A stretch of 64,000 nucleotides of DNA from assembly GCA_965222605.1 (NCBI GenBank), contig OZ244960.1, forward strand, positions 4,864,001-4,928,000. Direction: 5' to 3'. Of the stretch, positions 10,569-52,859 are shown in pieces; the first letter of the stretch is position 1, and the number at the start of each line of letters is the position of its first letter. A program made the translations under genes and the position numbers. The notes beneath the pieces are model-generated. The model did no database searches and was not told the DNA's origin. It saw only the letters and a program-made list of their open reading frames with translations. This stretch comes from Candidatus Latescibacterota bacterium. GTDB taxonomy: Bacteria; Latescibacterota; UBA2968.

Positions 10569-10575
10569 CGCCAAA

Positions 10576-36223: not shown

Positions 36224-36404
36224 GACCGTGTCTCCTTTTGGTTTTGTTCATTATGGATATCTTCGCTATACGAAATTACCTAATTGTTTTAAAAATTTCA
36301 AGTGTGTATATCGGCTATATGAGCTATCAATTGACATTATGTTTTTTTTACTTATCTTTTTCGTCCAAATTTTTGAAGGGTTTAAACCAATATTAGTACG
36401 AGGT

Positions 36405-36605
36405 ATGGCAATGGCAGAGGCGGGAAGCACCTGGTTGACGTCTAAGGAGATCGCGGATCGGTTGAGTAGTCGAAAAGCGAGAGAAGTGCAGGAAGATTTG
36501 CTCTATGGACGCCGAACGCGGCGTGAGATATTGGATCTGGTGATGGAAGCTGTGGGCTGCAATGAATATTCGGCAGAAGATTTTTTGCGTGAAATTGTGA
36601 AGTGA
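36405..36605 (+). CDS. Small hypothetical protein (66 aa)
   Basis: GAGG RBS before ATG 36405; helical, protein-like composition. Confidence 0.65.
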   Translation: MAMAEAGSTWLTSKEIADRLSSRKAREVQEDLLYGRRTRREILDLVMEAVGCNEYSAEDFLREIVK

Positions 36606-36690
36606 GTAAAGCTGACCGCTATTTGTGTTTGCCGCGTATCGAATCGTCAATACGCGGCACGATATTTTTTGACCTGTAGGGTACAACGCC

Positions 36691-38379
36691 ATGTCTGAGA
36701 TTTTTCAAGCGGTGGAAAACTGCGCCAGCAGTTCATCTGATTATCTGGTCATTGGCAGTGGCATTGCGGGCCTTTCTTTTGCGCTTAAAGCGGCAGAGAC
36801 GGGGTCTGTCACTTTGATTACTAAAAAAGAGTTTCAAGAATCCAATACCAATTACGCACAGGGCGGTATTGCTTCTGTTTTGCATCCAGACGATTCGTTT
36901 GAGCTTCACAGGGAAGATACGATTCAGGCTGGCGCGGGTTTGTGCCGCGAAAATGTGGTAGATATGGTGGTGCGGGCTGGTCCCGATATGGTCAAGTCAC
37001 TCATCGCATGGGGGGCTGAGTTTACGCGAGAGAGCGAGCGGCGTACAACTGAGTCAGCCGTTCAAAATCTCGCACTCGGGCGCGAGGGCGGGCATTCAAA
37101 GAATCGCATTGTGTATGCCGCCGATCTGACCGGGCGAGAGATTGAGCGGGCGTTGTCCGAAGCGGCGATAGCCCATCCCAATATCGCGTTGTACGAGTAT
37201 CACATGGCGATTGATCTGATCACGGAACACCATGTGTATGGTTCGAAAATTTCAACGCCGGGGAAGATTCAGTGTTGGGGTGTTTACGCATTGGATGCCG
37301 TGCATGGACAGGTGAAGACTTTTTTGGCAAAATTTACGCTGCTGTGTAGCGGCGGGTGTGGTCAGATTTATTTGCATTCGACCAATCCGGCTATTGCAAC
37401 GGGCGATGGTATTGCCATGGCATATCGCGCGGGTGCAAGTGTGGGCAATTTGGAGTTTATGCAGTTTCATCCCACGACGCTTTATCACCGAGATGCCGAT
37501 TCATTTTTGATTTCTGAAGCAGTGCGCGGGCATGGTGGCATTCTGGTGGATCGAGCGGGGCGGGCGTTTATGGTCGATTATCACGAGATGGGGCCGCTTG
37601 CACCTCGAGATGTGGTTGCGCGGGCGATTGATAGCGAGTTAAAAAAGAGCGGTGATCCCTGTGTGTTTCTCGATATCACGCATTGTCCAGGCGCAGAGCT
37701 TCAGGAGCGTTTTCCCACGATTTATGAACGGTGCTTGCAATTTGGCATTGATATAACGCAGCAGCCCATTCCAGTTGTGCCAGCCGCGCATTATATGTGC
37801 GGTGGCGTGTTCACGGATACGCAGGGGCGCACGGATATCGAAAGGCTTTACGCTTCGGGTGAGGTCGCTTGTACGGGGTTACACGGCGCGAATCGCCTGG
37901 CGAGCAATTCGCTGTTAGAAGCGCTGGTTTTTTCAGATCGCGCGTTTTCCGATATCCAGCAGCACATAGATGCGAGGCTCGATTTTCCGGATGTACCGGC
38001 CTGGCAAGACGACGATGTGTTTAATACAGAAGAATGGGTGTTGTTATCACACGACCGGCAGGAAGTACAGCGTTTGATGTGGGATTATGTGGGGATTGTG
38101 CGGTCGGATTTTCGATTGAAGCGCGCAGCCCGTCGTATTGGTGTGATTGTGCAGGAGGTCGAAGAATTTTATAAGCGCACGCAAGTTACTGAGGCACTGC
38201 TGGAGTTGCGCAATATGACGACTGTTGCCGCGCTGACTGTGCGCTGTGCATTATCCCGACGCGAAAGCCGGGGGTTGCATTACACACTCGATTGTCCTGC
38301 GCCATTCAAATCTGCAAAAGATACGGTGGTGTCCGCCTGGGAAACGTGGGGCATAGGTTTGCCGGTGATTGATGTGTGA
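36691..38379 (+). CDS. nadB: L-aspartate oxidase
   Basis: IGSGIAGL, AQGGIA, EGGHS..RI, QFHPT, LAPRD.VARAI, HGANRLASNSLLE, ESRGLHY. Confidence 0.96.
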   Translation: MSEIFQAVENCASSSSDYLVIGSGIAGLSFALKAAETGSVTLITKKEFQESNTNYAQGGIASVLHPDDSFELHREDTIQAGAGLCRENVVDMVVRAGPDMVKSLIAWGAEFTRESERRTTESAVQNLALGREGGHSKNRIVYAADLTGREIERALSEAAIAHPNIALYEYHMAIDLITEHHVYGSKISTPGKIQCWGVYALDAVHGQVKTFLAKFTLLCSGGCGQIYLHSTNPAIATGDGIAMAYRAGASVGNLEFMQFHPTTLYHRDADSFLISEAVRGHGGILVDRAGRAFMVDYHEMGPLAPRDVVARAIDSELKKSGDPCVFLDITHCPGAELQERFPTIYERCLQFGIDITQQPIPVVPAAHYMCGGVFTDTQGRTDIERLYASGEVACTGLHGANRLASNSLLEALVFSDRAFSDIQQHIDARLDFPDVPAWQDDDVFNTEEWVLLSHDRQEVQRLMWDYVGIVRSDFRLKRAARRIGVIVQEVEEFYKRTQVTEALLELRNMTTVAALTVRCALSRRESRGLHYTLDCPAPFKSAKDTVVSAWETWGIGLPVIDV

Positions 38380-38488
38380 TCCGCAGAATGAAGGCGAGTA
38401 ATTCGAGCATGAACGCAGATGAACGCAGATGAAAAAGAGGGGCTGGGGGCTGGTTGAACTGACTGCTGACAACTTTTCAGGAGTTCTT

Positions 38489-40312
38489 ATGCGCAACGGC
38501 ATTGCTGTGATTGATTTTGGTGGACAATATGCTCACTTGATTGCGAATCGGATTCGCAGGTTGCGGGTTTATTCCGAAATTTTTCCGCCGGATGTTGATC
38601 CTGCGGCATTGTGTGGCGTGTCGGGCATGGTTTTTTCGGGTGGTCCATCCAGTGTATATGATCCCGATCCACCCGCGTTTAATCCCAAATTGCTGGATAC
38701 CGATTTGCCCGTGCTCGGCCTGTGTTATGGGCATCAGTTGTTGTGCATGCATTTGGGAGGCAAGGTTGTTGCTGGTGAGGTGAGAGAATACGGTTCTGCC
38801 AGATTGAATATTGCAGGTGGGTCAGATTTGTTTGCCGGGCTTGGAGATTCCCAGGAGGTGTGGATGAGCCACGGCGATGTGGTTGCAACTTTGCCCGAGG
38901 GTTTTGAAATTTTGGGTACGACCGAGGATTGTCCTTCTGCAGCAGTTGGCGATGTCAAACGCGGGATTTATGGCTTGCAATTTCATCCCGAGGTGGCACA
39001 CACGCCGCGTGGATTGGATATTCTCGATAATTTTTTGACGATATGCGATGCGCCTCGAACCTGGACAATGGGCAATTATGCCGAAGTGGTTATGGAAGAG
39101 ATGCGGGAGAAGGTGGGGGACCGCAATGTGTTTTTGCTCGTTTCAGGTGGGGTTGATTCTTCGGTGGCTTTTGTGCTGTTTAACAAGGCGCTGGGCGCAG
39201 ATCGGGTGTTGGGGTTGCACATTGACAATGGTTTTATGCGAAAGGGTGAGACGGCTGCGGTGGAGGTTTTTCTAAAAAAAGAGGGGTTTGACAACCTGAT
39301 GGTCAAGGATGCCAGTGACGATTTTTTGTTGGGTGTGGAAGGTCTGATCGATCCAGAAGCAAAACGCGAGGCGATTGGACAAACATTTTTAGAGGTGAAG
39401 GACGAGGTGATGGCGCACTTGCATCTGAATGCAGATCAATGGGTGTTGGGGCAGGGGACACTTTATCCCGATACCATAGAATCGGGAGGGACAGAGCACG
39501 CTGCGTTGATTAAGACGCACCACAATCGCATTGATTTGATCGATGAGTTGATTGCACAGGGCAAGGTTGTCGAGCCTTTGGCACAGTTGTACAAGGATGA
39601 GGTGCGCGAGTTGGGGGGCGAGTTGGGGTTGCCCGATCATCTGGTGTGGCGACATCCGTTTCCGGGTCCTGGTCTGGCGGTGCGCTGTTTGTGCTCAGAT
39701 GGTGAGGTGGAGGGGAGTGATATTGCAGCAGCGGAGAGGGTCGCTTCTGAGATCGCTTCTGAGGCGGGTTTGCAATTGCGTGTTTTACCCGTTAAGAGTG
39801 TGGGGGTTCAGGGTGATTTTCGCACGTACTCGCATCCCGCGATTGTTTCGGGTTTCGACCTGAATACGGCCGAGAGCAATGACGATTGGCGCGTGCTCGA
39901 AGATATGTCAACGCGGATTACCAATAGCGTGCCGGGTATTAACCGCGTGGTTTGTCTTATTGCGCCAGACGAGTTGCCCAGGTTGCGTCTCAAGCGCGCA
40001 TTTTTGACCTATCAGAGGCTCGATGTTTTGCGGGAGGCCGATGCGATTGCTATGCGGGCACTCGACCGCGCGGGTCTTATGTCTGCAGTGTCTCAGATGC
40101 CGACTGTTTTGGCACCGCTGACGACAGATGGACAGAACGAGGTTGTGATTTTGCGCCCGATTACGACCCCAGATTTTATGACTGCGCGATTTGCCGAATT
40201 GCCTCACAACCTGGTGCGCGATATAGCAGACGAGATACTGAGTCTGCCCGGTGTCGCTGCCGTGGGTTATGATGTAACCCACAAACCGCCGGGGACAGTG
40301 GAATGGGAGTGA
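38489..40312 (+). CDS. guaA: GMP synthase (glutamine-hydrolysing), long form
   Basis: DFGGQY, GLCYGHQ, QFHPEV, SGGVDS, IKTHHN, RHPFPGPGL, KPPGTVEWE. Confidence 0.96.
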   Translation: MRNGIAVIDFGGQYAHLIANRIRRLRVYSEIFPPDVDPAALCGVSGMVFSGGPSSVYDPDPPAFNPKLLDTDLPVLGLCYGHQLLCMHLGGKVVAGEVREYGSARLNIAGGSDLFAGLGDSQEVWMSHGDVVATLPEGFEILGTTEDCPSAAVGDVKRGIYGLQFHPEVAHTPRGLDILDNFLTICDAPRTWTMGNYAEVVMEEMREKVGDRNVFLLVSGGVDSSVAFVLFNKALGADRVLGLHIDNGFMRKGETAAVEVFLKKEGFDNLMVKDASDDFLLGVEGLIDPEAKREAIGQTFLEVKDEVMAHLHLNADQWVLGQGTLYPDTIESGGTEHAALIKTHHNRIDLIDELIAQGKVVEPLAQLYKDEVRELGGELGLPDHLVWRHPFPGPGLAVRCLCSDGEVEGSDIAAAERVASEIASEAGLQLRVLPVKSVGVQGDFRTYSHPAIVSGFDLNTAESNDDWRVLEDMSTRITNSVPGINRVVCLIAPDELPRLRLKRAFLTYQRLDVLREADAIAMRALDRAGLMSAVSQMPTVLAPLTTDGQNEVVILRPITTPDFMTARFAELPHNLVRDIADEILSLPGVAAVGYDVTHKPPGTVEWE

Positions 40313-40529
40313 TGATGGAGGATGGAGCACTACTGCGCCAGCAGTTCATTAACAAAACGAACAAAGCCGGACAGAGTTATTTTTTTACTTTTTAGAATTG
40401 CAATGGAACAAAATGTACACCTTTCCTGTAGATAGTTAGCGAGCGTGGGTCTGCTAACGCCAATTATATATCCTTGTTTTATCGTGCCTTAGAATATTCT
40501 GAGGCACTTTTTTTTGGTTTTTTTCAAAA

Positions 40530-40546
40530 TGGGCACGGCTTTTGCA
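40530..40546 (+). promoter_or_regulatory. Sigma-54 (-24/-12) promoter
   Basis: TGGGCACGGCTTTTGCA: GG (40532-33)-N10-GC (40544-45), close to consensus TGGCACG-N4-TTGCW, about 75 bp before the first GT gene. Confidence 0.7.
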
Positions 40547-40620
40547 AGATATGCTGTGTGCAAATCGCGTGAATGGGATTGAGGCGGACGAGATGTCCGC
40601 GATGCCAGAGGGTTGAAGTT

Positions 40621-41895
40621 TTGAAAAATACTACAGTTGCGTTTTATAGCCAGCATCTCATTGGCGTTGGGCACCATTTTCGCAATCGACAGATTGTCAA
40701 TGCGTTGGTTAAGACTTGCGATGTGTTTTTCATCGATGGCGGGCGCCCGATTCCCGAGGCCGATCTCGATGAACGGGTGACGCGTATTTCCCTACCGCCT
40801 CTTCGCACGGGCGCACAGGGCATTGAGTCTGTTGATAAGGAGCGCGATTTGCAGGCTGTGATGTGCGAACGTCAGGTCAGGCTTTCCGAAGCGATGGAAC
40901 AGATTCGACCGGATGTGTTTTGTGTTGAATTTTTTCCTTTTTCCCGGTGGTCGCTCAAGGGCGAAATCCTCAATACCATTGTCAGGCTCAATCAGGTCAA
41001 TCCCGACGCGAAGGTGCTGTGTTCACTGCGCGATGTTCCCACGCGGGCAAAAAGCGATGAGTTGCAACCGGCTATTGCGCCTACAGAACGGCGCGATGGG
41101 GATGCGATGCGGTTTTATTCGGTGCCTTTTGGCGGGATACATCACGAGTATTTGTCTTTTAATCGGCGGTATTACGAGGAGGTTGTGCCCGTGTTGAATC
41201 AGTATTTCGATGCGGTGCTGGTGCATGGCGATTCCCAACTATCGCGGTTGGAAGATCACTTTCCATGGGTTGCTGATATCGGGATTCCCGTGGTTTATAC
41301 GGGATTTGTTTCTGAGAAACTCGAGGATGTCTCTCGGCCTGACAGTGCGTCCGATCAGTATGTTTTGGTCAGTGCTGGCGGTGGTGCTGAGGGGCTTGCG
41401 CTTGTCGCGCCGTGTATTGAAGCGTGGAAAAAATTGGAACAGGACGATGTGCACGATGGACGCGAGATGGTGATTTTTGCAGGTGCGTTTATCGATGAAA
41501 CGCATTTTGACGCTTTGCGCGAGTTGTGCGGCGATGGTCCGTTTCGTATTGAACGCTTTACGTCCAATTTTTTGGCCTGGATGAAATACACAGATTTGTC
41601 GATTAGCCGCGCGGGCTACAATACCTGTATGAATGTACTTGAGACGCAAGTTCCAACGATTTTGGTGCCGAGTATTGCGATGGATGATCAGGAGTTTCGC
41701 GCACAGAAGTTGATGGCGTTGGGCCTCGCACGGGTGATACATCCCGACCACTTATCCGTGGCAAAGATGGCAAAATCCATTGCCGAAATGCTCGAAAGTT
41801 CTGTGCCTGAACACCATCTATCCCTGGGTGGTGCCGAGCAAACGCGAAAGTTTATAGAATTAGCGGTACAAGGTAAAAAACGAGGTGAAAGATGA
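40621..41895 (+). CDS. GT-B glycosyltransferase, COG4671/GT28 C-terminal-like
   Basis: FYSQHL.G.GH..R; VE.FPF.R; SLRD; VLVHGD; VSAGGG..G; SISRAGYNT; DQ..RA. TTG start assumed. Confidence 0.85.
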   Translation: MKNTTVAFYSQHLIGVGHHFRNRQIVNALVKTCDVFFIDGGRPIPEADLDERVTRISLPPLRTGAQGIESVDKERDLQAVMCERQVRLSEAMEQIRPDVFCVEFFPFSRWSLKGEILNTIVRLNQVNPDAKVLCSLRDVPTRAKSDELQPAIAPTERRDGDAMRFYSVPFGGIHHEYLSFNRRYYEEVVPVLNQYFDAVLVHGDSQLSRLEDHFPWVADIGIPVVYTGFVSEKLEDVSRPDSASDQYVLVSAGGGAEGLALVAPCIEAWKKLEQDDVHDGREMVIFAGAFIDETHFDALRELCGDGPFRIERFTSNFLAWMKYTDLSISRAGYNTCMNVLETQVPTILVPSIAMDDQEFRAQKLMALGLARVIHPDHLSVAKMAKSIAEMLESSVPEHHLSLGGAEQTRKFIELAVQGKKRGER

Positions 41896-43295
41896 AAATT
41901 TATGTGTCACATCCGTATCACGACCGCGAGAAAGTGATAGAGTCGAATATCGGGGCATCCCTTTCGGGTTTTAACCATGTGCAGGCGTTATCGCAGTATT
42001 GCGATGTGTATATGCCAGCGTCTGAAGCGGTGGATTATGGTCCGAATTTGCACGGTACTCGGGTTGCATTTGAGACGATTGATTCGTCTCGACAATGGTT
42101 TGAGCGGCAGGGATATGACGGTGTGCTGATGTTTGAACCCAAGGTAGATGACATAGCGTTTTTCCGCCATGTGTGTTCCGCGCCCATTGTGATTCGGCTG
42201 TCGTGCTCTTTTGGACACAATCGCGATTTTATAGACAAGGTGCTGAATTGTTATTCGCTGTTGCGGCCTTATGATGCCCTGTCACCCAAGTCGGCATATG
42301 TCGCTGACGAAATCGGCAAGCTGGTGTTTGACCGATCGTATTTGCAGGCGATTACCAATGGAGTAGATGCCGAGGTGTTCAAGCCGATGGATAAGTTACA
42401 GGCGCGAAAAGATGTCGCGGATAAGACGGGTGATCAACGCTTTTTGGAGATGCCAGTGGTGGGTTTTTGCGGGCGGTTTGAACCGAGCAAGGGCGCGTAT
42501 CCATTTTTGCGAATGGCCGATCTGAATCCCAATATGTTGTTTGCGGTGATTGGCAAGCAGTTCGCACCCGTGACCCATCCGCCCAATGTGATCTTTTTGG
42601 GTGCGCAACCCTATACGCAGATGCCGCTGTATTACAATATACTCGATGTGTTGTGCGCGCTGTCGGTGTATTCGTATGAGTCGTGTCCTTCAACTGTGCT
42701 GGAGGGGATGGCGTGTGGCCTTCCGGTTGTGGCGACAAATTTTGCGGGCGCGCCAGAGTTGTTGGGCAGTTGTGGGCGGTTGATTGAGATTGAGCGGTTT
42801 GAAGATGAGCCATTGAATGTGACGGGTTATATCGCCCCTGAGGTGATTTCAGATGCTGTGCGCGATTTGTTGAATAGCAAAACGGAGCGCTTGGAAATGG
42901 GAGAAGGTGCTCGCAAACGTTCGCTCGAATTTTCCTGGGATCATACGGCGCAGCAGCACATGGCATTGTTTGAAGATCTGCTGGCCAAACGCGATGCACC
43001 CGCCTGCCCGATTCCAATAACCGTGAATTTTACACAGAGTTGTGATGCGTCTGGTAACCCGAAAAGTGTGTCCAAAGGATTTAACTATCTGGGCAGCAGA
43101 CAAGGTCCTTTCCCACGCATCTCGTTTTTTGGGCAGGATATGTCCCTTATTGAGGGCCTGGGTCTTCATTTGATGCAACATTTACACCCAAACGAAGTCG
43201 AAGCCGCTCTGTTGGGCTTATGCGAGACGCGCGCTACAGCCTACAAAACGCTTCGCAAAATCCGACACTTCAGCGATATGCTCACGGCTCCCTGA
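41892..43295 (+). CDS. GT4-family glycosyltransferase with ~90-aa C-terminal extension
   Basis: ITNGVD...F.P; GRFEPSKG; S..YESCPSTVLEGMACGLPVVAT (EX7E); FSWD; ATGA overlap with the upstream GT. Confidence 0.9.
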   Translation: MKIYVSHPYHDREKVIESNIGASLSGFNHVQALSQYCDVYMPASEAVDYGPNLHGTRVAFETIDSSRQWFERQGYDGVLMFEPKVDDIAFFRHVCSAPIVIRLSCSFGHNRDFIDKVLNCYSLLRPYDALSPKSAYVADEIGKLVFDRSYLQAITNGVDAEVFKPMDKLQARKDVADKTGDQRFLEMPVVGFCGRFEPSKGAYPFLRMADLNPNMLFAVIGKQFAPVTHPPNVIFLGAQPYTQMPLYYNILDVLCALSVYSYESCPSTVLEGMACGLPVVATNFAGAPELLGSCGRLIEIERFEDEPLNVTGYIAPEVISDAVRDLLNSKTERLEMGEGARKRSLEFSWDHTAQQHMALFEDLLAKRDAPACPIPITVNFTQSCDASGNPKSVSKGFNYLGSRQGPFPRISFFGQDMSLIEGLGLHLMQHLHPNEVEAALLGLCETRATAYKTLRKIRHFSDMLTAP

Positions 43296-43347
43296 TCGGC
43301 AAAGGGAGACAGCTTGCGCTGAGGTAGTGAAGAAAGGAGGTGAAAAA

Positions 43348-43566
43348 ATGACTGAGCGCATTACGTCGATGCCAGCACAAGTTTCTGTGACCTGTGTTCA
43401 ACTTCCCGGTCGAGAAATCGAACTGGCGCGTGGTGAGATGGCGAATACATCAGGAGGGTGCATTTTACCAGGAGAAGACATGTTTGAGCATGACCCACTT
43501 GAGCCTCTTGAAGATATTATTGATGATATCTGCGATACGGTGAGTGAATGGTGGGCTTCCTGGTAG
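43348..43566 (+). CDS. Putative RiPP precursor 1 (double-glycine leader, 35-aa acidic core)
   Basis: Strong RBS AAGGAGGTG; ...ELARGEMANTSGG|CILPGEDMFEHDPLEPLEDIIDDICDTVSEWWASW; upstream of a C39 transporter. Confidence 0.8.
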   Translation: MTERITSMPAQVSVTCVQLPGREIELARGEMANTSGGCILPGEDMFEHDPLEPLEDIIDDICDTVSEWWASW

Positions 43567-43677
43567 CAATCGCGCCACGATCCATAAAACGCTATTTCTG
43601 GTATTTAAGTACTGGATGAAAACTATCTTTTTTTAGTACTTGACGAGTCTTACCATTTATTACTTTTGGAGGATATC

Positions 43678-44073
43678 ATGTCCGCTATTGTATTAAATAA
43701 TCGCGTAACTTCAGATTCAGACGCTGCTTTTGCCTCTTGCACGGCACTGCCCATCCATCAAACAACGCTCAATGCTGAAGAAATGGCGGGTATTGATGGT
43801 TTGGGGAGTTGGGGCGATGCTATTGATAAGGTTGGAGATTATGTTTCGGATGTTGTTGATTCAGTAGGAGATTATGTTTCGGATGCTGCTACTACTGCTT
43901 CGATAGCTATTTTCGGTGGGGCTGTTTATGCAGACTTAGATCCTGATCCATTTGGTTTCCCATCACCACCTGATACACTGATTATTATCACTCGGGAACC
44001 ACATGTGTGCAACGGCCCGATTGTGTACACATCTTATGGGTCTTGTTTGTGTCCGATGCCAGGCCGCCCGTAG
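43678..44073 (+). CDS. Putative RiPP precursor 2 (GG-type leader variant, repeated core)
   Basis: RBS GGAGGA; leader ...CTALPIHQTTLNAEEMAGIDG aligns without gaps to precursor 1; core has VGDYVSD twice and a Pro/Cys-rich tail. Confidence 0.75.
   Translation: MSAIVLNNRVTSDSDAAFASCTALPIHQTTLNAEEMAGIDGLGSWGDAIDKVGDYVSDVVDSVGDYVSDAATTASIAIFGGAVYADLDPDPFGFPSPPDTLIIITREPHVCNGPIVYTSYGSCLCPMPGRP
43831..43885 (+). repeat. 33-bp intragenic duplication in precursor 2
   Basis: GTxGGAGATTATGTTTCGGATG at 43831 and 43864. Confidence 0.9.
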
Positions 44074-44231
44074 GTTCGCTGTGCATCAACCCGTCATTCC
44101 CGCACACGCGCACAATGTAGTCACACGTAGAAAAATGCCATTAATCTCGCAGCCCTTTTTGGAGTTGCCTGAGGCAAATGCCTACGGCGTGTGCAGGAGT
44201 GACGGCAATCTATATGAGGCATGATAAAAAA

Positions 44232-47200
44232 ATGAATCTTTCGGTTTTTTTCGCAAAAAACTCAGTTCGGTCACAACCCGCTCGTTATTCCTTTGGAGGT
44301 ATTGTTTGTCAACGGGGACAAGCGGGTGAGGCGTTTTACATTGTGCAATCTGGACGGTTGCGGGTGATCAAACAAGATGCGAATGGCAATTCGGCCACTG
44401 TGGGCTATTTGTATGCGGGCGATCATTTTGGCGAAGGGGCATTGTTGAACCGGCAGGGACATCGGGCGACGGTGCGGGCGGTTGAGGATGCGGATGTGTT
44501 GCAGGTGCCGAAGGATGAATTTTTTAAGGCTGTGAGAAAACATTCTGACCTGAAAGCCTATCTTAAGGAGCAGGTCGCCTGTATTGCGTATCGGGATTTT
44601 ACGCGATTTTTGAAAGGAGATGTTCCGAGCGAGGCGATGCGGGTGTTGTTCGCACGGTTGAAGCGCGAGGCGGTTGAGAAGGGTGTGACGGTTGTTGATC
44701 GCGGTCAGTTAGGACAGCGATTTTATTTGATTGGCAGCGGTCAGTTGGAGGCTGTGTCAGAAAATGGGGACACGGTGATTTTGAGCCAGGGTGATTATTT
44801 TGGAGATGAGAATTTATCAGGTGATAAAAGGGTGATTCGCAGTCGGTGTGATAGTGTGCTCTTTTATATAGATAAAAGCGATTTTAATAAATTAAAAGCT
44901 ATGATGCCGGGATTCGAGAAGGCGTTGGAGAGAGGCCGCATATTGCGTGGAGATCAGGCATCGAATGGGGCATTGTTGCGACAAGTGCGACAAGTACCTG
45001 AGCCACTTACTGCGCGATCTGATGAAAAACTGGCATCCAATACAACATCCAATGTGGTCAATATCAGAATAGACGGCGCAAAACCGCTTGTACCCACATT
45101 GTTGCGTTTTCCGTTTTTGAAGCAACACGATCAATCGGATTGTGGCGCGGCGTGTTTGGGCATGATTTGTAAGTATTACAAGATGCCGATTGGGTTGAAC
45201 AGGCTACGCGATATGTCCAATGTGTCGCGGTATGGCACGTCGGTGGCGGCATTGGCCGAGGCTGCGGAAACACTGGGTTTTGTCACGCGCGGCGTGCGCA
45301 CGGGGTATGAAGCCCTGATGCGAACAGACCTGCCAGCCATTCTCCACTGGGAAGGCAACCACTTTGTGGTTTTGTATCAGATTACAAAAAAGGAGGTGAA
45401 GATAGCAGATCCCGGCGTGGGTATTCGCAAGCTGTCGCGGGCAGAGTTCGAGAAGGGCTGGACAAATATGGCGCTGTTGTTGGAATACACAGATCAGGTG
45501 GCAGAGAACGAACCGTCTCGGTCTTCTTTTAAGCGGTTTTTCCCATTGATCAGACCCTATACAGGCATATTGATTGAGGTGCTATTAGCGTCTTTGGTGC
45601 TCAGTTTGTTTGGCCTGGCGTCGCCCATTTTTATGCAGACCATTGTCGATCAGGTGCTGGTGCATCACGACGCGGATTTGTTGAACTTGATGCTGGTGGG
45701 CATGATTGTTGTCGCGTTGTTCCAAATGGGTACATCGACGTTGCGCGTCTATTTAATCGGGTATGTGAGTGCGCGGTTGAGCATTGCGATGTTATCGCGT
45801 TTTTATCGGCATTTGCTGGCGCTGTCCATGCGGTTTTTTGCCCTGCGGCGCACGGGCGATTTGACCACGCGGTTTAGGGAGAATGCGACGATTCAGCGTT
45901 TGTTGACGGGTACGACGGTTTCTGCGATTCTGGATTTTATCATGCTTTTTGTCTATCTGGGTCTGATGTTTTATTACAATGCTGAACTGACGCTGATCAT
46001 GCTGATTTTTGTGCCGCTCTCTGTGGGTCTCACGCTGATTTACACGCCCATTTTGAAGTCTTTCAGCCAGCGCGCTTTTTTGGCGCGTGCCGAACAATCA
46101 TCGGTTTTAATCGATTCGCTGCACGGCATTGATGTGGTCAAAGCCGAGGCTGTGGAGCGCGCGACGCGGTGGCATTGGGAAGGTAAGTTCACAAAGGAAA
46201 TTCAGATTGGATTTCAGCGGTTAAAAATGCAGATGTTGTTTGGGGGGATCGGAAGAGTGTTCAATTTGTTGAGCAGTACGGTGATTTTGTGGTATGGTGC
46301 CTCATTAGTGATTGCGGGTGACCTGTCGGTGGGGCAGTTGATGGCGTTTAACGCGCTGATTGGCAATGTGATGGGACCGATTATGGGGTTGATTGGGATA
46401 TGGCCTCAGGTGCAAGAAGCGCGTATTGCATTGGATCGGCTGAATGATGTGTATGACACGCAGATGGAAGATGCGCGGCAACAGGGTCAGGGTTTGATCT
46501 TAAAGCATTTGGAAGGTCGGGTGGTGTTTGATGAGGTGTTTTTTAGATATGGTGTCGGTTCTGATGAACCTTATGTGTTGAATAACATAGACCTGATTCT
46601 CGAACCGGGTCAAAAAGTTGCGATTGTGGGACGCAGTGGCGCGGGCAAGACCACATTGGTAAAGCTGGTACCCCGTTTGTTTGATCCGTCAGAAGGGCGG
46701 GTGATGCTGGATGGTATGGATGTGCGAGACCTGGATCCCCATTGGTTGCGGCGGCAGGTGGGTATGGTGATGCAAGAGCCGTTTTTGTTTTCTGGCACGA
46801 TTGCAGAAAATATCGCCATTGGTCGAAAAGATGCCGACATGGATCGCATTTTGGAAGTGGCAAAACTATCGTGTGTACACGATTTTGTAAGCGATATGCC
46901 TTTGGGATATGAGACAAAGGTCGGTGAGCAGGGTGTAGGACTATCTGGTGGACAGCGACAGCGGATTGCAATTGCGCGGGCACTGTATTGCGATCCCAAA
47001 ATTTTGATTTTTGATGAGGCCACCAATGCGCTGGATACGGATTCAGAACAGGCGATGCAGGCGAATTTAGATATGTTTTTGGATGATCGCACGGCGTTGA
47101 TTATTGCCCATCGGTTGAGTACGGTGCGCGATGCGGATGCGATTGTGGTGCTGGATAAGGGTCATATTGTGGAGATGGGCACGCACGATGAGTTGATGGT

Positions 47201-47252
47201 GCAACAGGGTTTGTATTATCACCTGTGCAGTCAACAGTTGCAGGTGGTGTAA
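44232..47252 (+). CDS. Peptidase-containing ABC transporter (2 x cNMP-binding + C39 + TMD + NBD)
   Basis: Two cNMP domains (FYIVQSG...GDHFGEGAL; FYLIGSG...GDYFGD); QHDQSDCGAACL, HWEGNHFVV, IADP (intact C-H-D); GRSGAGKTT, LSGGQRQR, FDEAT. Start uncertain (44178 or 44232). Confidence 0.95.
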   Translation: MNLSVFFAKNSVRSQPARYSFGGIVCQRGQAGEAFYIVQSGRLRVIKQDANGNSATVGYLYAGDHFGEGALLNRQGHRATVRAVEDADVLQVPKDEFFKAVRKHSDLKAYLKEQVACIAYRDFTRFLKGDVPSEAMRVLFARLKREAVEKGVTVVDRGQLGQRFYLIGSGQLEAVSENGDTVILSQGDYFGDENLSGDKRVIRSRCDSVLFYIDKSDFNKLKAMMPGFEKALERGRILRGDQASNGALLRQVRQVPEPLTARSDEKLASNTTSNVVNIRIDGAKPLVPTLLRFPFLKQHDQSDCGAACLGMICKYYKMPIGLNRLRDMSNVSRYGTSVAALAEAAETLGFVTRGVRTGYEALMRTDLPAILHWEGNHFVVLYQITKKEVKIADPGVGIRKLSRAEFEKGWTNMALLLEYTDQVAENEPSRSSFKRFFPLIRPYTGILIEVLLASLVLSLFGLASPIFMQTIVDQVLVHHDADLLNLMLVGMIVVALFQMGTSTLRVYLIGYVSARLSIAMLSRFYRHLLALSMRFFALRRTGDLTTRFRENATIQRLLTGTTVSAILDFIMLFVYLGLMFYYNAELTLIMLIFVPLSVGLTLIYTPILKSFSQRAFLARAEQSSVLIDSLHGIDVVKAEAVERATRWHWEGKFTKEIQIGFQRLKMQMLFGGIGRVFNLLSSTVILWYGASLVIAGDLSVGQLMAFNALIGNVMGPIMGLIGIWPQVQEARIALDRLNDVYDTQMEDARQQGQGLILKHLEGRVVFDEVFFRYGVGSDEPYVLNNIDLILEPGQKVAIVGRSGAGKTTLVKLVPRLFDPSEGRVMLDGMDVRDLDPHWLRRQVGMVMQEPFLFSGTIAENIAIGRKDADMDRILEVAKLSCVHDFVSDMPLGYETKVGEQGVGLSGGQRQRIAIARALYCDPKILIFDEATNALDTDSEQAMQANLDMFLDDRTALIIAHRLSTVRDADAIVVLDKGHIVEMGTHDELMVQQGLYYHLCSQQLQVV

Positions 47253-48635
47253 ATGGCAGAATCGCTTTTGGAGACATCGGCTGAGACAGTAGTTCCCGGT
47301 ATAGTTCAGGAGCAAGATGACGCGGCAGAAGAGGTGCATGCGTTTATGGGGTCTTTGCGGCCCTTTTGGGGACGTGCAATGCTCTATATTGTCCTGCTGT
47401 TTGTGATCATTGCCATTACCTGGGCATGGTGGGGTGAGGTGGATATGGTGACATCAGCCCCTTTTCGACTGGTGCCTCTGGGGCAGGTGAAGACGATGCA
47501 GGCACAGCGAGGTGGTGAAATTGAGTTGATTGGTGTTAAAGAAGGGGATCATATTGAGAAAGGGCAGGTGTTATTTAAGCTCAAATCGTGGGAGACCTGG
47601 GGAGATTTGCGGGAATGGGAACAGGCAAAGATGGCTTTTCAGAAGGCGGAGTACGATCTCAAAAGGGTGTTGCCTCAAAGGGCAAAATTAAATCGAGAGA
47701 CGATAGGCGCGCTGGAACAACGCCTTTCTGTTTTGCAGCGGTTTATGGTGGCACACCAGAATGCGTTGAAAGATTATCAAAGCGATGTAGGCGATGTTGT
47801 GGGATCGAAAACCAAAGTATCTGACGCGGGATTGCAAGCGCAGATCGGTTTTCGGCAAGCTGAGATTGACCTTATGAAACAGGAATTTTTACAGCAAAAG
47901 GCGTTGTTTGAGCGCGAATTGATCAGCCGGACAGATATGAATCGCGCGCGTGTGCAGTATTTGAGTGCTCTGTCCGCACTTCCGTCGCGTATGTCAGAGA
48001 TATACAAGAATGAAATGGCGGTGCAGGATCTCAAGCGTCAAATTCTGGAAGCGCGTATTGCACACGAGCGCGAGGCATCGCAGATGCAACACGCTTATGA
48101 GATCGTACAATTGCGATTGGAACAGGCTCGCAAACGCATTGATCGTACCCTGGAAGCCGAGTCAGATCTGATTCTGGCACCTGAATCGGGCATTGTAACA
48201 CAGGTGATGGTGAATGCGATAGGACAGGTGATCAGCAAGGGGGCGCCTCTAATTACACTGGCACCGGCTTTGGCACCGATGGTTGCGGAACTGATGGTGT
48301 TGAATAAAGATGTGGGCTTGCTCAAACCCGGGCAATTGGTCAAACTGAAATACGGCGCTTATGCCTTTCAGGATTTTGGCATCAAACGCGGGTGGCTCAA
48401 ATACATCTCGCCCGATGCGATGATTGATAAAAGTATTGGACCGATATTTAAGTGTGTTGTCGAGTTGGAAGAAAATACCATGCATGTGCAAGGATACGAC
48501 AAACCGCTGATGTTCGGGATGAAGGGTACGGCAGAGATTATGACAGATCGCCAATCAGTCTTACTGATGTTGCTGAGTCCCTTGCGACAGCTTTACGAGT
48601 CGGCAAGGTACGATGTTCAAGAGGGTGCGTTGTGA
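47253..48635 (+). CDS. HlyD-family membrane fusion protein
   Basis: N-terminal TM segment, VKEGD..EKG..L, coiled coil, APESG.V, DVG....GQ.VKLK..AY.FQ.FG, GM.G.AEI. Confidence 0.93.
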   Translation: MAESLLETSAETVVPGIVQEQDDAAEEVHAFMGSLRPFWGRAMLYIVLLFVIIAITWAWWGEVDMVTSAPFRLVPLGQVKTMQAQRGGEIELIGVKEGDHIEKGQVLFKLKSWETWGDLREWEQAKMAFQKAEYDLKRVLPQRAKLNRETIGALEQRLSVLQRFMVAHQNALKDYQSDVGDVVGSKTKVSDAGLQAQIGFRQAEIDLMKQEFLQQKALFERELISRTDMNRARVQYLSALSALPSRMSEIYKNEMAVQDLKRQILEARIAHEREASQMQHAYEIVQLRLEQARKRIDRTLEAESDLILAPESGIVTQVMVNAIGQVISKGAPLITLAPALAPMVAELMVLNKDVGLLKPGQLVKLKYGAYAFQDFGIKRGWLKYISPDAMIDKSIGPIFKCVVELEENTMHVQGYDKPLMFGMKGTAEIMTDRQSVLLMLLSPLRQLYESARYDVQEGAL

Positions 48636-49411
48636 TGTCAGAGGATGCCACACTGATTCGGGTCAATGGTATTGCAGTGTCATTGCGCCATGTCGTGCGG
48701 CAACTGGGCGTTGCTGGTAATCTGCGTTTTTTTGATGGATTTACGCGCAGGGAATTGGTCCGACAACTCGCGCTGCGCGAGGGTGTTTGCGCAACGCGTG
48801 AAGATATTCAGCGCAAGGTAGATGAATGGCGGTATCAACACCGTTTGGAGCGGGTGGAAGATACAGAGGCATGGCTTGTAAAGCGGAGTATTACGCTTCA
48901 GGATGTGACAGAAGATGCCGAGGTGAGGCAGTTGGAATATTTGCTGTCTGAGAAGATTGCCGAGGGACAGGTTGAACCCTATTTCGTGCAACACATGCTG
49001 GAGTTTGACGAGGCGGAGATTTGCTGGATTTTTCACGCGGATAAGGGTGTGATCGACGAGATTGATTTGCAGATCCGAGAAGATAGTGCAGATTTTTACG
49101 CGATGGCGCGTCGATTTTCTCAAGATGCACGCACGCGATCAGGTAGTGGTTTTTTAGGCAGGGTGCGGCGCAAGCAGTTGCCCAAGGGGATTGCTGCGCG
49201 CGTTTTTGCCGCTTCCTCAGGTGAAATTTTTGGTCCGGAAAAAGTGTCGGGCGGGTTTGCGCTGTACCTGGTGCAGCAACTCTATCCGGCAACACTGGAC
49301 GAGCGGATTGCAAAGGAGATCCGCAAACACCTGTTTAATCAGTGGTTGCAACGAGAGATGCAGCGAGCAGATATACGGTATCCGATTTGGCAGATGGAAA
49401 TAACAAAATAA
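48635..49411 (+). CDS. Parvulin/PpiC-like (rotamase-fold) maturation protein
   Basis: F...ARRFS.D......GG/SG-FLG...R..LP....A.VF....G...GP; TGATG coupling to hlyD. Such proteins commonly accompany cNMP-C39 transporters. Confidence 0.85.
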   Translation: MSEDATLIRVNGIAVSLRHVVRQLGVAGNLRFFDGFTRRELVRQLALREGVCATREDIQRKVDEWRYQHRLERVEDTEAWLVKRSITLQDVTEDAEVRQLEYLLSEKIAEGQVEPYFVQHMLEFDEAEICWIFHADKGVIDEIDLQIREDSADFYAMARRFSQDARTRSGSGFLGRVRRKQLPKGIAARVFAASSGEIFGPEKVSGGFALYLVQQLYPATLDERIAKEIRKHLFNQWLQREMQRADIRYPIWQMEITK

Positions 49412-49453
49412 ATTCTGAAAAAAAAGTTAAAAAATCAAAAGAACAGGTCCGCA

Positions 49454-50305
49454 CTATGGCATTACGGCTTTTTCGCCCTGATATTTGCTGATCCAGCTTT
49501 TCAAAGGAACATCTCCTTCTTTTGGCGATGTGTAGCCGTGAATGCCCGAAGGAGAATGCCGGCACATTTGCTTTCGGATTGGACTCAGTTGATCCCAGAA
49601 ATTTTCCACGTTGCATTCGCCGCGCGCTTGAAGCCAGCGGTAAGCGTATCCGTAGAAGATCACCTTGCGGGGTTGCGTCCAATAATTTGCACTCGCTGAA
49701 TGCCACAACCGACGGTCAAAAATAACGGCTGAACCCCGGGGAGCGAGGACGGGTATAGAGCCCTTTACCATCTGATTGCGATTTCCGTTCGGCCACTTCA
49801 TCGTATTTTTTAACTGGCTTCCCGGAATGATGTGAAAATTGCCGCGTTCCGGTTCGCTTGTATCCGATAGAAAGTAAGCTACTTTGACCGATAAGCGCGG
49901 CCTCGGGCTTGTCTCCATTTCCTGATTCACGCGCCCGGTATCTTGATGCCAACTGAGTCCCAAACCGCGTTTGCTATCTGGTGGTTCGGGAGGCGTTACG
50001 TCCATGTGTGCCAGATAGATTTGTATATTCCATCCCAAGATCCCCCAAACTTTTGGGAATGTCGTATAGTGATCTATCAAGTCAATAAATGCACGATCTC
50101 GCCCCATAAAGTCGATTTCGTGAACCCGCTTATGTGGGTCAATTTTTTGTTTTTCGCGTTCCTCGGCATTGATGCGATCAACTGCTTTGGTCAGTTGTCT
50201 TCTTTTCGCATCGCTCAGTGCGTTTTCAATGATTAGATAACCCCGGTCCTCAAATTCGAGGCGTTCGTCTTCAGTCAGGCAATGGTTTAGCCAGCGTTTG
50301 TTCAT
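49454..50305 (-). CDS. Phytanoyl-CoA dioxygenase (PhyH)-family Fe/2OG enzyme
   Basis: F...GYL.IEN; WHQD; IPGS; G.AVIFD.RLWH. Confidence 0.9.
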   Translation of the reverse strand: MNKRWLNHCLTEDERLEFEDRGYLIIENALSDAKRRQLTKAVDRINAEEREKQKIDPHKRVHEIDFMGRDRAFIDLIDHYTTFPKVWGILGWNIQIYLAHMDVTPPEPPDSKRGLGLSWHQDTGRVNQEMETSPRPRLSVKVAYFLSDTSEPERGNFHIIPGSQLKNTMKWPNGNRNQMVKGSIPVLAPRGSAVIFDRRLWHSASANYWTQPRKVIFYGYAYRWLQARGECNVENFWDQLSPIRKQMCRHSPSGIHGYTSPKEGDVPLKSWISKYQGEKAVMP

Positions 50306-50318
50306 AGCGCATCTCCTT

Positions 50319-50786
50319 TCATGAAAAGAGGTTGGCCTTCTTTTTTCGTCGATCCAGAATATAGAATTTGATAAGCCCTATCCCGCCGATCAGACTACAG
50401 GGTATCACAATGAAGCGGTACATTGAGACTTCGTCATATCGAAGCGATGCACCGGTCGCGCCTATTGTCACGACCACAAATGATATGTGAATGAGTTTTT
50501 GAGATAGGTATTTATTGACAAAGGTAGAGATTAGAATCAACGCGAGCGCCGTGTGGAAAATGACAAATCCCGCATAACCGTTTCGCACGGCGAGATCAAA
50601 ATGCCAATCATAGCGATAAAGCCATACCATGAGCACATGTGTCAGAATGATCAGCGCGACAGCACGCCACAGCGCGATCGGGTGTTGTTCTCGCAGCGTG
50701 AGCACAACCACAGTGGTCAATCCCACATATCCTGTGATCGCCAATAAAAAAGTGATGAAAATTTCCGTTGTTCCCGTTCCAACCAT
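50319..50786 (-). CDS. Hypothetical membrane protein
   Basis: About 5 hydrophobic segments; start uncertain. Confidence 0.7.
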   Translation of the reverse strand: MVGTGTTEIFITFLLAITGYVGLTTVVVLTLREQHPIALWRAVALIILTHVLMVWLYRYDWHFDLAVRNGYAGFVIFHTALALILISTFVNKYLSQKLIHISFVVVTIGATGASLRYDEVSMYRFIVIPCSLIGGIGLIKFYILDRRKKKANLFS

Positions 50787-50915
50787 CGACAGATTCTCCC
50801 TTCTCATAGCTCTGTGTCGCGTTTGATATGCAATATATCGCATGATATTCTAAGAACAAGAGCGTTTCACAGGTGCTGACATGTCTCTATTTGGTGTAGG
50901 CGATTCATTACATGC

Positions 50916-50950
50916 AAAACGGGTTACGACGTATTGCCATAACCCGTTGT
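50916..50950 (-). terminator. Terminator downstream of tRNA-Thr
   Basis: Minus strand AACGGGTTATGGC-AATAC-GTCGTAACCCGTT followed by TT. Confidence 0.7.
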
Positions 50951-50956
50951 TTTTTG

Positions 50957-51032
50957 TGGAGCCGCCCAGCGGACTCGAACCGCTGACCGCCTGATTACAA
51001 ATCAGGTGCTCTACCAGCTGAGCTAGGGCGGC
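50957..51032 (-). tRNA. tRNA-Thr (UGU)
   Basis: GCCGCCCTAGCTCAGCTGGTAGAGCACCTGATTTGTAATCAGGCGGTCAGCGGTTCGAGTCCGCTGGGCGGCTCCA: full cloverleaf, anticodon TGT, encoded CCA. Confidence 0.98.
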
Positions 51033-51134
51033 TGGTCCGTCAAAGATATAAAAGCACGCGATTTTTGGCAACCTCAAAGAGGGGTTTAACTGCTATCGCA
51101 GTTGTACACTTCTTGGGGACTGGGGGCTGGTAGG

Positions 51135-52217
51135 TTAGAAAAACGATGTCGTGCGTTTTTGATCGCGTTCGTAGCGTTCAATGCCCAGTTGAATGAGGCG
51201 ATCAATCAATTCTTGATAAGAAATTCCACTGGCCTCCCACAGCTTGGGATACATACTGATCCGCGTAAAGCCGGGAATGGTATTGATTTCATTTACCACA
51301 AAGGTGCCGTCATTTTTTAGAAAGAAATCCGCGCGTGCCATGCCCTCACAGCACAAGACTTGAAATGTGTGAATGGCAAGGGTTTGCACCCGTTTTACAG
51401 CTTCTTCCGATAAATCTGCGGGGATGTGCAATACCGCGCCTTTTTCATCCAGATATTTCGCTTCATAAGAATAAAACTCGTGCTGCGGCAAGATTTCACC
51501 GGGTATTGAGACAATGGGCGTCTCATTGCCCAATACCGAACATTCAATTTCTCGACCCTCAACAAAAGCCTCGATCAGTACCTTTTTGTCGTAGCGAAAT
51601 GCTTCTTTCAACGCGGGGATTAGCGCGCTTTTGTCGTGTACTTTACTCACGCCGACCGATGAACCCAAATTTGCAGGCTTTACAAATAGGGGCAATCCCA
51701 GTTCTGAAATCACATCATCCACATCCAGATTTTCCAATTGGAACTGAAGCACTGTTCGCCACGCGGCAATGGGAATATTGGCATCGCGCAGCAGGCGTTT
51801 CATCACGTCTTTGTCCATCCCCACAGCCGAGCCGAGCACATCTGCGCCTACATAGGGGACATCGGCCAATCTCAAGAATCCCTGTACTGTGCCGTCTTCT
51901 CCCAGCGGTCCGTGCAAGACGGGAAAAACCACATCGACCGAATCGGACGCAGACTGTCCCACGAGTTCACCGCGCCCTTCTGGCATCAACGTAATCAGCG
52001 CGTTTTGGTCTGCATCAGAGAGTCCCTCTGTATTGGCTTCGGGCAATAGTTGTTCGGCTTCGTTCAAGAACCATTGACCCGATTTGTCGATTCCTATTGG
52101 CACGACTTCGTATTTGGTTTTGTCAATCGCGTCAATAATATTGCGCGCAGACTGCAATGACACTTCGTGCTCTGCCGATTTCCCACCAAATAGTATTCCA
52201 ACGCGGATTTTTTTCAT
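51135..52217 (-). CDS. ddl: D-alanine--D-alanine ligase
   Basis: FGGKSAEHEVS, HGPLGEDG, KPANLGSSVG, FYSYEAKY, NEINTIPGFT..SMYP. Confidence 0.96.
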   Translation of the reverse strand: MKKIRVGILFGGKSAEHEVSLQSARNIIDAIDKTKYEVVPIGIDKSGQWFLNEAEQLLPEANTEGLSDADQNALITLMPEGRGELVGQSASDSVDVVFPVLHGPLGEDGTVQGFLRLADVPYVGADVLGSAVGMDKDVMKRLLRDANIPIAAWRTVLQFQLENLDVDDVISELGLPLFVKPANLGSSVGVSKVHDKSALIPALKEAFRYDKKVLIEAFVEGREIECSVLGNETPIVSIPGEILPQHEFYSYEAKYLDEKGAVLHIPADLSEEAVKRVQTLAIHTFQVLCCEGMARADFFLKNDGTFVVNEINTIPGFTRISMYPKLWEASGISYQELIDRLIQLGIERYERDQKRTTSFF

Positions 52218-52840: not shown

Positions 52841-52859
52841 TTGTGTATCCTTTCACACT

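Follow-up and report, generated by a model that had tools for sequence, protein, structure and literature searches.

The window analysed here is a stretch of 64,000 nucleotides (nt) from Candidatus Latescibacterota bacterium (assembly GCA_965222605.1, contig OZ244960.1, positions 4,864,001 to 4,928,000 of the forward strand), and coordinates below are positions in this window unless stated otherwise. Between guaA and a divergent PhyH gene, seven co-directional genes occupy positions 40573-49411 of the + strand. They encode two glycosyltransferases (GTs) of the GT-B fold, here called GT1 and GT4, two short peptides (P1 and P2), an ATP-binding cassette (ABC) exporter with a C39 peptidase domain, a HlyD-family adaptor and a PpiC-type protein. 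A preliminary description, made from the DNA letters, had read this run as a candidate new system for glycosylated peptides. All seven genes were found where it had placed them, with starts corrected, and the features are as follows.

38429-40312: guaA, upstream neighbour of the cassette
40484-40507, + strand: terminator-like hairpin of 10 pairs with a T-run, between guaA and GT1
40573-41895, + strand: GT1, a GT-B enzyme with a GT28-type C-terminal domain (Pfam Glyco_tran_28_C); start at ATG 40573, or at TTG 40615 as homologues suggest
41892-43295, + strand: GT4, a GT4-family glycosyltransferase (Pfam PF00534)
42987-43292, + strand: family-specific C-terminal domain of GT4, residues 366-467
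43348-43566, + strand: precursor P1, 72 residues, corrected start ATG 43348, GGAGG at 43336-43340
43678-44073, + strand: precursor P2, 131 residues, corrected start ATG 43678, GGAGG at 43668-43672
44232-47252, + strand: exporter with two cNMP-binding stretches, C39 peptidase and ABC domains (Pfam, NCBIfam); open reading frame (ORF) from 44178
47253-48635, + strand: HlyD-family periplasmic adaptor (HlyD_3)
48635-49411, + strand: PpiC/parvulin-type protein, start ATG 48635 (Pfam Rotamase PF00639)
49454-50305, opposite strand: PhyH gene, downstream of the cassette

The coupling of these genes was as the preliminary description had it: GT1 and GT4 overlap by 4 nt, the exporter gene abuts the HlyD gene, and the HlyD and PpiC genes overlap by 1 nt. 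The spacing between GT4 and the first peptide gene is only about 50 nt. Both peptide genes have the strong ribosome-binding sites noticed earlier, with GGAGG located 7 nt 5' of the P1 start and 5 nt 5' of the P2 start. Since a hairpin with a T-run lies downstream of guaA, the cassette is marked as a transcription unit of its own; a sigma-70 promoter scan gave 7 sites against a shuffle mean of 11, and no promoter was obtained from it. In the 111-nt spacer between P1 and P2 (43567-43677), an inverted A-G-T-A-C-T pair flanks a T-run and might act as a partial terminator, adjusting how much P1 is made relative to the products of downstream genes. Lanthipeptide, YcaO and radical SAM families, which had been declared absent, indeed gave no match in the seven genes (Pfam, NCBIfam).

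Precursor peptides and their common leader

P1 consists of a 37-residue leader and a 35-residue core. The leader contains the elements R4-I-T-S, C-x-x-L-P and L-x3-E-M-x4-G-G, with matches at L(-12), E(-8), M(-7) and G-G, and the core begins with Cys, carries 2 Cys that are 24 residues apart, and has 11 acidic and 0 basic residues for a net charge of about -11. The leader of P2 belongs to the same family: P1 and P2 find each other by BLASTP (E = 9e-05), and both match one leader hidden Markov model (HMM) at E ~1e-20. Of the two GG-type precursors originally proposed, P1 keeps that label (T-S-G-G), whereas P2 keeps the leader and reads I-D-G-L, without GG, at the aligned cleavage position. The P2 core is likewise acidic (12 acidic and 3 basic residues), so the strongly anionic character claimed for both cores stands; it repeats a G-D-Y-V-S-D unit twice and has 3 Cys in its tail. 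Neither P1 nor P2 has a Pfam or NCBIfam match.

The leader model, an iterated HMM, recovered 94 peptides among 10,878 ORFs of 63 stretches. Over the whole genome of the window, which is one contig of 6.34 Mb, it returned P1 and P2 only (2 of 119,400 frames at E < 0.1). In every related cassette, 1-5 short ORFs lie in the gap between GT4 and exporter; they have AGGAGG-type ribosome-binding sites and leaders of one family, ~37-45 residues long. The cores are hypervariable, and the leader is the only element common to the cargos of one cassette. Some cores are acidic with Trp-rich ends, others are Gly/Ala-rich and hydrophobic, resembling class II bacteriocins or microcins, and still others have Cys-rich tails or Gly/Ser- or Lys/Gly/Thr-rich repeats. 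Larger gaps also hold Rce1-like/CPBP membrane proteases, which are the usual type of bacteriocin immunity protein, together with small membrane proteins, DUF3267 proteins, an S41 peptidase, M16 pairs and insertion sequence (IS) elements; a response regulator with an AraC domain lies upstream of some cassettes. Two expanded cassettes, L053 (genome G018) and L058 (G016), have gaps of 5.8-9.4 kb with duplicated peptide/CPBP units, an S41 peptidase and DUF3267 proteins, and one of their peptides ends in a 7-Cys run followed by D-D; L058 contains transposase-like repeats and an interrupted ABC gene. No immunity gene is recognisable in the window at 40573-49411, so this strongly acidic pair of products may be something other than classical membrane-active bacteriocins.

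The glycosyltransferase module

The sole Pfam match of GT1 is the GT28 C-terminal domain (Glyco_tran_28_C, 51.7 bits versus a cut-off of 22). The protein stays far under all NCBIfam cut-offs; its match to MurG (TIGR01133), for example, reaches 44.8 versus 250.25 bits and covers the C-terminal 86 residues only. Among solved structures it weakly resembles UDP-glycosyltransferases of the GT1 family and MurG, with a best E of 0.002, and its N-terminal loop G-V-G-H-H-F-R-N is invariant. GT4 matches Glycos_transf_1 (PF00534) with 66.7 bits versus a cut-off of 26.4, and its catalytic motifs are intact: 14 sequences all retain both glutamates of E-x7-E (E263 and E271). The solved structures nearest to GT4 are those of MshA-type enzymes. 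No membrane segment was found in GT1 or GT4.

GT4 ends in a conserved domain of ~100 residues that, in the searches made, is restricted to this GT4 family. A word-based search with the domain returned 32 clusters, all of them GT4 proteins and 30 of them 467-468 residues long, and a HMMER profile search of 1.84 billion representatives returned 6 matches, of which 2 were low-complexity repeat proteins and were dismissed. When the domain was modelled alone, the last 50 residues formed three helices (predicted local distance difference test score, pLDDT, ~85), and the preceding 50 residues stayed below a pLDDT of 50; the full-length AlphaFold2 (AF2) model of GT4 was poor, with a mean pLDDT of 56.5. 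The domain fold had no match in PDB at E <= 0.001 by Foldseek and no usable match in the ESM Atlas. A complex prediction of GT1, GT4 and P1, each entered as an alignment, scored 0.03 (mark 0.32) and was used neither for nor against any reading.

Taking the pair as the complete tailoring set needs revision. The two enzymes are indeed both GT-Bs, but they are a reduced form: a third GT4-like domain (GT-X) is fused to GT1 in 18 of 29 cassettes, at the N-terminus in 15 and at the C-terminus in 3, and the lineage with cassettes adjacent to guaA, which includes that of the window, has lost it. Such fusions indicate that the GTs work as one module, which, most simply, would build a short glycan.

The best NCBIfam and PDB matches of the two enzymes are MurG, macrolide glycosyltransferases and MshA, and such kinships bear on the question of what is glycosylated. 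The module might act on another acceptor of the same system and not directly on the peptide. This acceptor could be a lipid or small molecule, joined to the peptide afterwards like glucosylated enterobactin in class IIb microcins, or the envelope of the producer (lipid II or a glycolipid), altered for self-protection. Both forms agree with GT1 being closest to MurG and to macrolide/aglycone enzymes of the GT1 family, and with the small acceptors of the MshA-type relatives of GT4. One of the class IIb microcin tailoring enzymes is itself a GT-B glucosyltransferase. Class IIb microcins also need extra enzymes that join the enterobactin derivative to a C-terminal Ser (PMC10233263). Siderophore, lipid-carrier or MceIJ-like attachment genes, however, are not found in the cassette (Pfam, NCBIfam). 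The self-protection form would suit a window cassette without a recognisable immunity gene when larger sister cassettes have Rce1-like/CPBP genes, but those CPBP-bearing cassettes still keep their GTs.

The export trio

In Pfam, the exporter shows two cNMP_binding stretches, Peptidase_C39 (137.7 bits), ABC_membrane and ABC_tran, and it passes NCBIfam TIGR01193, 'peptide cleavage/export ABC transporter', with 533.6 versus 523.85. The C39 domain lies at about 45108-45488 and is intact as had been reported, its Q/C, H and D motifs being readable in the translation; the membrane domain is of the six-helix type. The adaptor matches HlyD_3 (46.5 bits versus a cut-off of 22.2), scores 203.1 against TIGR01843, slightly below the cut-off of 208.65, and has one N-terminal membrane segment. 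The PpiC-type protein matches Rotamase PF00639 with 46.2 bits (cut-off 21.7). With 92.6 bits against a cut-off of 180, it is related to TIGR04500, the PpiC-related putative peptide maturation system protein, without being a member, and as it has no hydrophobic segment it is probably cytoplasmic. In all trios examined, with or without GTs, a PpiC gene is present as the last gene.

Genomes of Latescibacterota have up to five such export trios each, and that of the window has three. The other two (at about 407600-417200 and 746700-758300 of the genome contig, G000:C1) are paralogous to each other and have no GT genes. Each comes with two M16-type peptidase genes, a Cys-rich protein of 124-199 residues and a protein of 190-210 residues with a different double-glycine leader (...E-E-M-S-M-A-R-G-G).

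Conserved linkage of GTs, peptides and exporter

Relatives of GT1 were found in 30 of 61 close genomes (E <= 1e-5), all 20 genus-mates included. Across the phylum, GT1 occurs in 26 of 168 genomes (E <= 1e-15), which belong to 4 of 49 genera in two families of one order; judged from these genomes, the GT cassette is restricted to one order of Latescibacterota. The PpiC protein is more widespread than GT1, being present in 41 of the 61 genomes, including 15 of 15 of a genus here called g7.

For a test of synteny, which the preliminary description had called for, 20 kb were fetched around 40 GT1 homologues and the proteins of the window were mapped onto these loci. The GT genes proved to be linked mostly with, rather than without, precursors and transporter: 27 of the 40 loci have GT1 (49-89% identical), a gap of 0.8-9.4 kb and a C39 exporter, and 26 of these 27 also have a GT4 orthologue, L059 being the one that lacks it. 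All five large genes are seen in 23 of the 27, and in 3 loci cut by the end of the fetched stretch the PpiC genes were found further on. Another locus, L064, is a 5.6-kb contig with GT-X, GT1 and GT4 that ends right after the leader peptide. The remaining 12 loci hold distant GT1 paralogues (33-45% identity), with no GT4 orthologue and no intact trio. Several cassettes can occur in one genome at unrelated positions, with four in G002 and three each in G007 and G017; these paralogous cassettes at other genome positions show 49-51% identity in GT1, 50-68% in GT4 and ~65% in ABC. Cassettes are also found in genera g5 and g9, the latter of the other family, and a short contig of g6 carries a GT1 gene.

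Could this adjacency be without functional meaning, the GT product being a polysaccharide or glycolipid and the genes simply passengers of a mobile bacteriocin island? Envelope glycan loci commonly contain GT4 and GT28-like genes, and related GT sets do lie beside ABC-2-type transporters, sulfotransferase/GT2 and heparinase-like genes (L033, L046). Yet all 27 of the long-enough loci with GT1 of at least 49% identity carry the exporter, at several genome positions and across deep divergence. In addition, the order GT, peptides, exporter is fixed across cassettes, with just the short GT4-peptide spacing given above, and the GT4 C-terminal domain is confined to these cassettes. Mere co-travel is thus a very improbable explanation.

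Two loci with GT1 paralogues of 43-45% identity, L038 (G007) and L044 (G002), belong to other export loci. They contain an S8 subtilase (once fused to DUF1611), an ABC exporter without C39, HlyD, a TPR protein with a C39-like domain, an acyl-carrier-type protein, Yip1-domain proteins and a MacB-type pump, and may represent a second, unrelated tailoring-and-export system using the same GT family. Several public records of the GT1 family are labelled Gemmatimonadetes or Gemmatimonadota bacterium, while genome-level records are Latescibacterota; these labels are probably binning or classification errors.

Probable loss of the GTs and relaxation of the leader motif

A comparison set of 20 loci was taken around PpiC matches away from GT1 matches, 11 of them from g7. 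No GT1 was found in the 20 loci. The 11 g7 loci have neither GT1 nor GT4 but do have the trio, the leader family and CPBP genes, and in whole genomes of g7 GT1 is found in 0 of 15 at E <= 1e-15, with only weak matches of 27-29% in 4 of the 15. Their export proteins are close to those of the window (ABC 72-76%, HlyD 71-75% and PpiC 63-73% identical), and their ABC is closer to it than that of the GT-bearing paralogous cassettes. When 42 ABC proteins were placed in a tree, the 10 rows of g7 formed a clade within a 29-row clade whose other 19 rows are GT-bearing (Shimodaira-Hasegawa-like approximate likelihood ratio test, SH-aLRT, 100); further GT-bearing clades lie outside it, and the M16-type trios lie across the root. 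With this GT-less clade nested among GT-bearing ones, the GTs were probably lost in g7. As sister cassettes with the same leaders work without GTs, the GTs are an accessory module and not the core of the system.

Leader columns were counted on distinct leaders, 55 from GT-bearing cassettes and 34 from g7. Arg at column 4 is found in 55/55 versus 17/34, Thr at column 6 in 35/55 versus 1/34, and Ser or Thr at column 7 in 54/55 versus 26/34. Leu19 of the L-P pair and Gly36, the first Gly of the cleavage site, are invariant in both sets, and Leu -12 is conserved in both. An orthologous peptide type reads L-A-N-R-M-T-T with GTs and L-A-N-P-M-A-T in g7. As judged from these alignments, the N-terminal R-x-T-S/T motif is relaxed in g7. 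The cores differ as well: Cys opens the core in 18 of 58 peptides with GTs versus 0 of 34 in g7, P1-type cores reading G-G/C-I-L-P-G with GTs and G-G/F, I or L without them (the slash marks the cleavage site), and the median net charge of the core is -8 versus -2.

At the locus L125 (G052, locus coordinates ~9468-10956), the GT module seems to have been lost recently. Of GT4, only the last 90 residues remain there (60% identical), beside IS-type transposase genes and directly 5' of a leader peptide that keeps R-I-T-T. Several g7 loci (L118-L124, L134 and L135) have a TMEM260-like protein O-mannosyltransferase (GT-C) and GtrA on the opposite strand, 1.7-2 kb from the first peptide gene, with a GT2 and a methyltransferase further on. 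A role of these GT-C, GtrA and GT2 genes as functional replacement of the GT-B pair was rejected, because an orthologous GT-C/GtrA pair (72-80% identity) lies at ~1.07 Mb in the genome of the window, far from any cassette; their adjacency to g7 cassettes is probably due to chance.

These leader data bear on two alternatives. For a GT acceptor other than the peptide, they leave two observations unexplained, namely that the N-terminal leader motif is invariant only alongside GTs and that Cys at core position 1 is confined to cassettes with GTs; we regard such an acceptor as unlikely. The other alternative is that the sugar sits on the leader itself (Thr6/Ser7) as a tag that acts in the cytoplasm, in protection, timing or export competence, and is removed with it, so that the exported peptides are unglycosylated. 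Hydroxyl residues are among the conserved positions associated with GTs (columns 6 and 7), and the leader is the only part that the variable cargos of one cassette share. But column 6 is occupied by Ile, Val, Leu, Lys or Ala in 20 of the 55 leaders accompanied by GTs, a docking site explains the motif equally well, and two or three GT domains seem wasteful for a leader that is discarded. We know of no precedent for a sugar tag on a discarded leader and consider this one quite improbable.

A proposed model of leader-guided glycosylation

Leader-guided glycosylation of the precursors, followed by C39 cleavage and export, is the best explanation of these observations, with a probability of roughly 55%. 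P1 and P2 would be synthesised in the cytoplasm, where soluble GT1 and then GT4, or the reverse, would recognise the leader N-terminus M-x-x-R-hydrophobic-T/I/V-S/T and put one or two sugars on the precursor. The exporter C39 domain would cut between the Gly pair and Cys of T-S-G-G/C in P1 and after the aligned I-D-G-L in P2, and the ABC/HlyD pair would export the anionic product together with an unlinked outer-membrane channel. In this scheme, the N-terminal part of the leader would be the address for the GT module and its C-terminal L-x3-E-M-x4-G-G the address for C39, leaving the cores to vary freely. The PpiC-like protein and the invariant Leu-Pro of the leader both go with all trios, GT-bearing or GT-less, and the protein probably acts in handling this Leu-Pro. 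Export is probably gated through the cNMP domains by a nucleotide signal, as in HetC of Nostoc, whose N-terminal cNMP domain is required in vivo and binds ppGpp in vitro (PMC10986499). That the peptides are the GT acceptors is inferred, as are the site and the sugar; candidate acceptor sites are the Cys at core position 1 of P1-type peptides or the Thr/Ser of the leader motif.

Several points weigh against this model. No RiPP (ribosomally synthesised and post-translationally modified peptide) recognition element is demonstrable in GT1 or GT4 by Pfam, AF2 or Foldseek against PDB, and no sugar-nucleotide genes are found in the cassette (Pfam, NCBIfam). GT28-like and GT4 enzymes usually act on lipid-linked or small-molecule acceptors, and in L033 and L037 sets of GT-X::GT1 and GT4 are found with no trio. 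About two informative losses underlie the co-variation, g7 and L133, the peptides of the latter falling outside the leader model; L125, a third and recent loss, keeps its R-I-T-T motif. The leader counts include related, non-independent sequences, Arg4 and Ser7 persist despite the absence of GTs in one type of g7 leader (M-N/K-R-R-I-A-S), and the ABC tree came from a quick search with a midpoint root. The GT-less g7 cassettes further show that export of this peptide family does not require GTs. As to expression, an RNA-library run labelled coral metagenome contains contigs ~88-92% identical that cover 29 of 30 bins, one contig bridging the end of GT4 into P1, but as these are contigs of a relative with possible DNA carry-over they are a weak hint only; the bin without cover, 43811-44111, falls in the variable P2 core, and no conclusion was drawn from it.

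Neighbouring genes

The PhyH gene at the downstream border was considered as a tailoring enzyme and rejected, because the PhyH/membrane-protein/Ddl backbone adjoins only the cassettes next to guaA and is absent beside paralogous cassettes. Rfam and tRNA scans of 36000-54000 gave nothing besides a tRNA-Thr (TGT) at 50957-51032 on the - strand, an ordinary backbone gene between the gene of a 174-residue membrane protein and ddl.

Comparison with known systems

To our knowledge, glycosylated ribosomal peptides fall into a small number of families, most of them with one GT-A enzyme. By description, the GtfA/GtfB O-GlcNAc transferase pair of serine-rich-repeat adhesins offers a likeness: these are adjacent GT-B proteins, one of them of family GT4, that jointly modify a secreted protein in the cytoplasm before dedicated export. 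Their substrates differ, being huge Ser-rich adhesins that leave by accessory Sec export. Glycocins such as sublancin, glycocin F and pallidocin share double-glycine leaders and a C39-ABC exporter with the present cassette; their glycosylation, which is cytoplasmic, precedes cleavage and export. The glycocin enzyme SunS is a GT2/GT-A protein, and the defining pattern of the family is two nested disulfides with thiol-disulfide oxidoreductase genes. Here, in contrast to a single SunS-type GT, there are two or three GT-B domains, and Glycos_transf_2 (PF00535) is absent from the seven genes (Pfam). A helix-loop-helix core with nested disulfides and a thiol-disulfide oxidoreductase gene are likewise not found, and no thioredoxin-fold gene was detected in the cassette (Pfam, NCBIfam). 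Furthermore, the producer is of Gram-negative type, with HlyD, cNMP domains and a PpiC protein, and the cores are strongly anionic and up to ~115 residues long. Many P1-type cores begin with Cys, as would fit the Cys chemistry of glycocins, in which S-linked sugars on Cys are common (PMC6405829, PMC12457901).

The claim of a new system holds for the link between the GTs and the trio, of which the GTs are an accessory part, and not for the trio itself. Bacteriocin clusters of cyanobacterial groups I, II and VI with cNMP-C39-ABC/HlyD/rotamase genes and double-glycine peptides were described in 2011; they share with this cassette the long-type C39 ABC, HlyD, a SurA-like rotamase and double-glycine precursors (PMC3140520). 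Some of them contain M16 peptidases, as do the two GT-less trios of the window's genome with their M16 pairs. They differ in phylum and leader family, and the term 'glycosyl' is absent from the main text of that paper, which reports no glycosyltransferase there. The distinct peptide class proposed earlier is partly supported, by the synteny and by the co-variation of the leader motif with GT presence, but a GT-B enzyme in a RiPP cluster is not a novelty. The cluster of cacaoidin, a lanthidin, has several GTs including the GT4 enzyme Cao24, proposed to build a disaccharide (PMC8068269). Cacaoidin, however, is an actinobacterial peptide with lanthionine and AviMeCys, and besides GT2 partners and sugar-nucleotide genes of its own, its cluster has another protease and exporter; none of these features occurs here.

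Class II microcins are Gram-negative as well, with a double-glycine pre-peptide, a peptidase-containing ABC transporter (PCAT), a membrane fusion protein and unlinked TolC; several peptides share a single export set, and class IIb needs extra tailoring genes (PMC10233263). Gly/Ala-rich hydrophobic cores are common to these microcins and the sister cassettes. In that source's account, their tailoring attaches a siderophore to a C-terminal Gly/Ser-rich tail, unlike here, an immunity gene lies next to each peptide, and cNMP domains, a PpiC protein or a GT pair are not part of the system.

No description of a GT28-like/GT4 module with a PCAT trio, or of such a system in Latescibacterota, was found in the literature searches made; 'RiPP-like' antiSMASH calls in metagenome-assembled genomes of sponge Latescibacterota are mentioned without detail in PMC12993501, whose supplements may list such clusters. 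Although the export trio and a GT4 enzyme in a RiPP cluster are already known, the GT28-like/GT4 and PCAT combination probably makes peptides of an undescribed kind. The locus is most likely a lineage-restricted, multi-copy cassette that makes glycosylated exported peptides by means of a leader-addressed GT-B module. More tentatively, and with less than even confidence, the GT28-like enzyme, the GT4 with its private C-terminal domain and the often fused third GT4 might define a new RiPP-like class. In this class, a general leader-addressed glycan would be placed on the whole secreted repertoire of invertebrate-associated Latescibacterota, at or beside the leader-core junction and S-linked to Cys+1 in P1-type peptides, on cargos from 30-residue acidic ones to ~115 residues, and the products would leave through a nucleotide-gated PCAT.

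If true, the model would widen the enzymology of peptide glycosylation to GT-B enzymes that are addressed by a leader motif to many unrelated cores, and would provide a leader and enzyme combination with which designed peptides could be glycosylated. Genus g7, as a natural GT-loss clade, is at hand as a comparison for experiments. For the uncultured phylum Latescibacterota, these cassettes offer a first handle on the secreted peptide repertoire.

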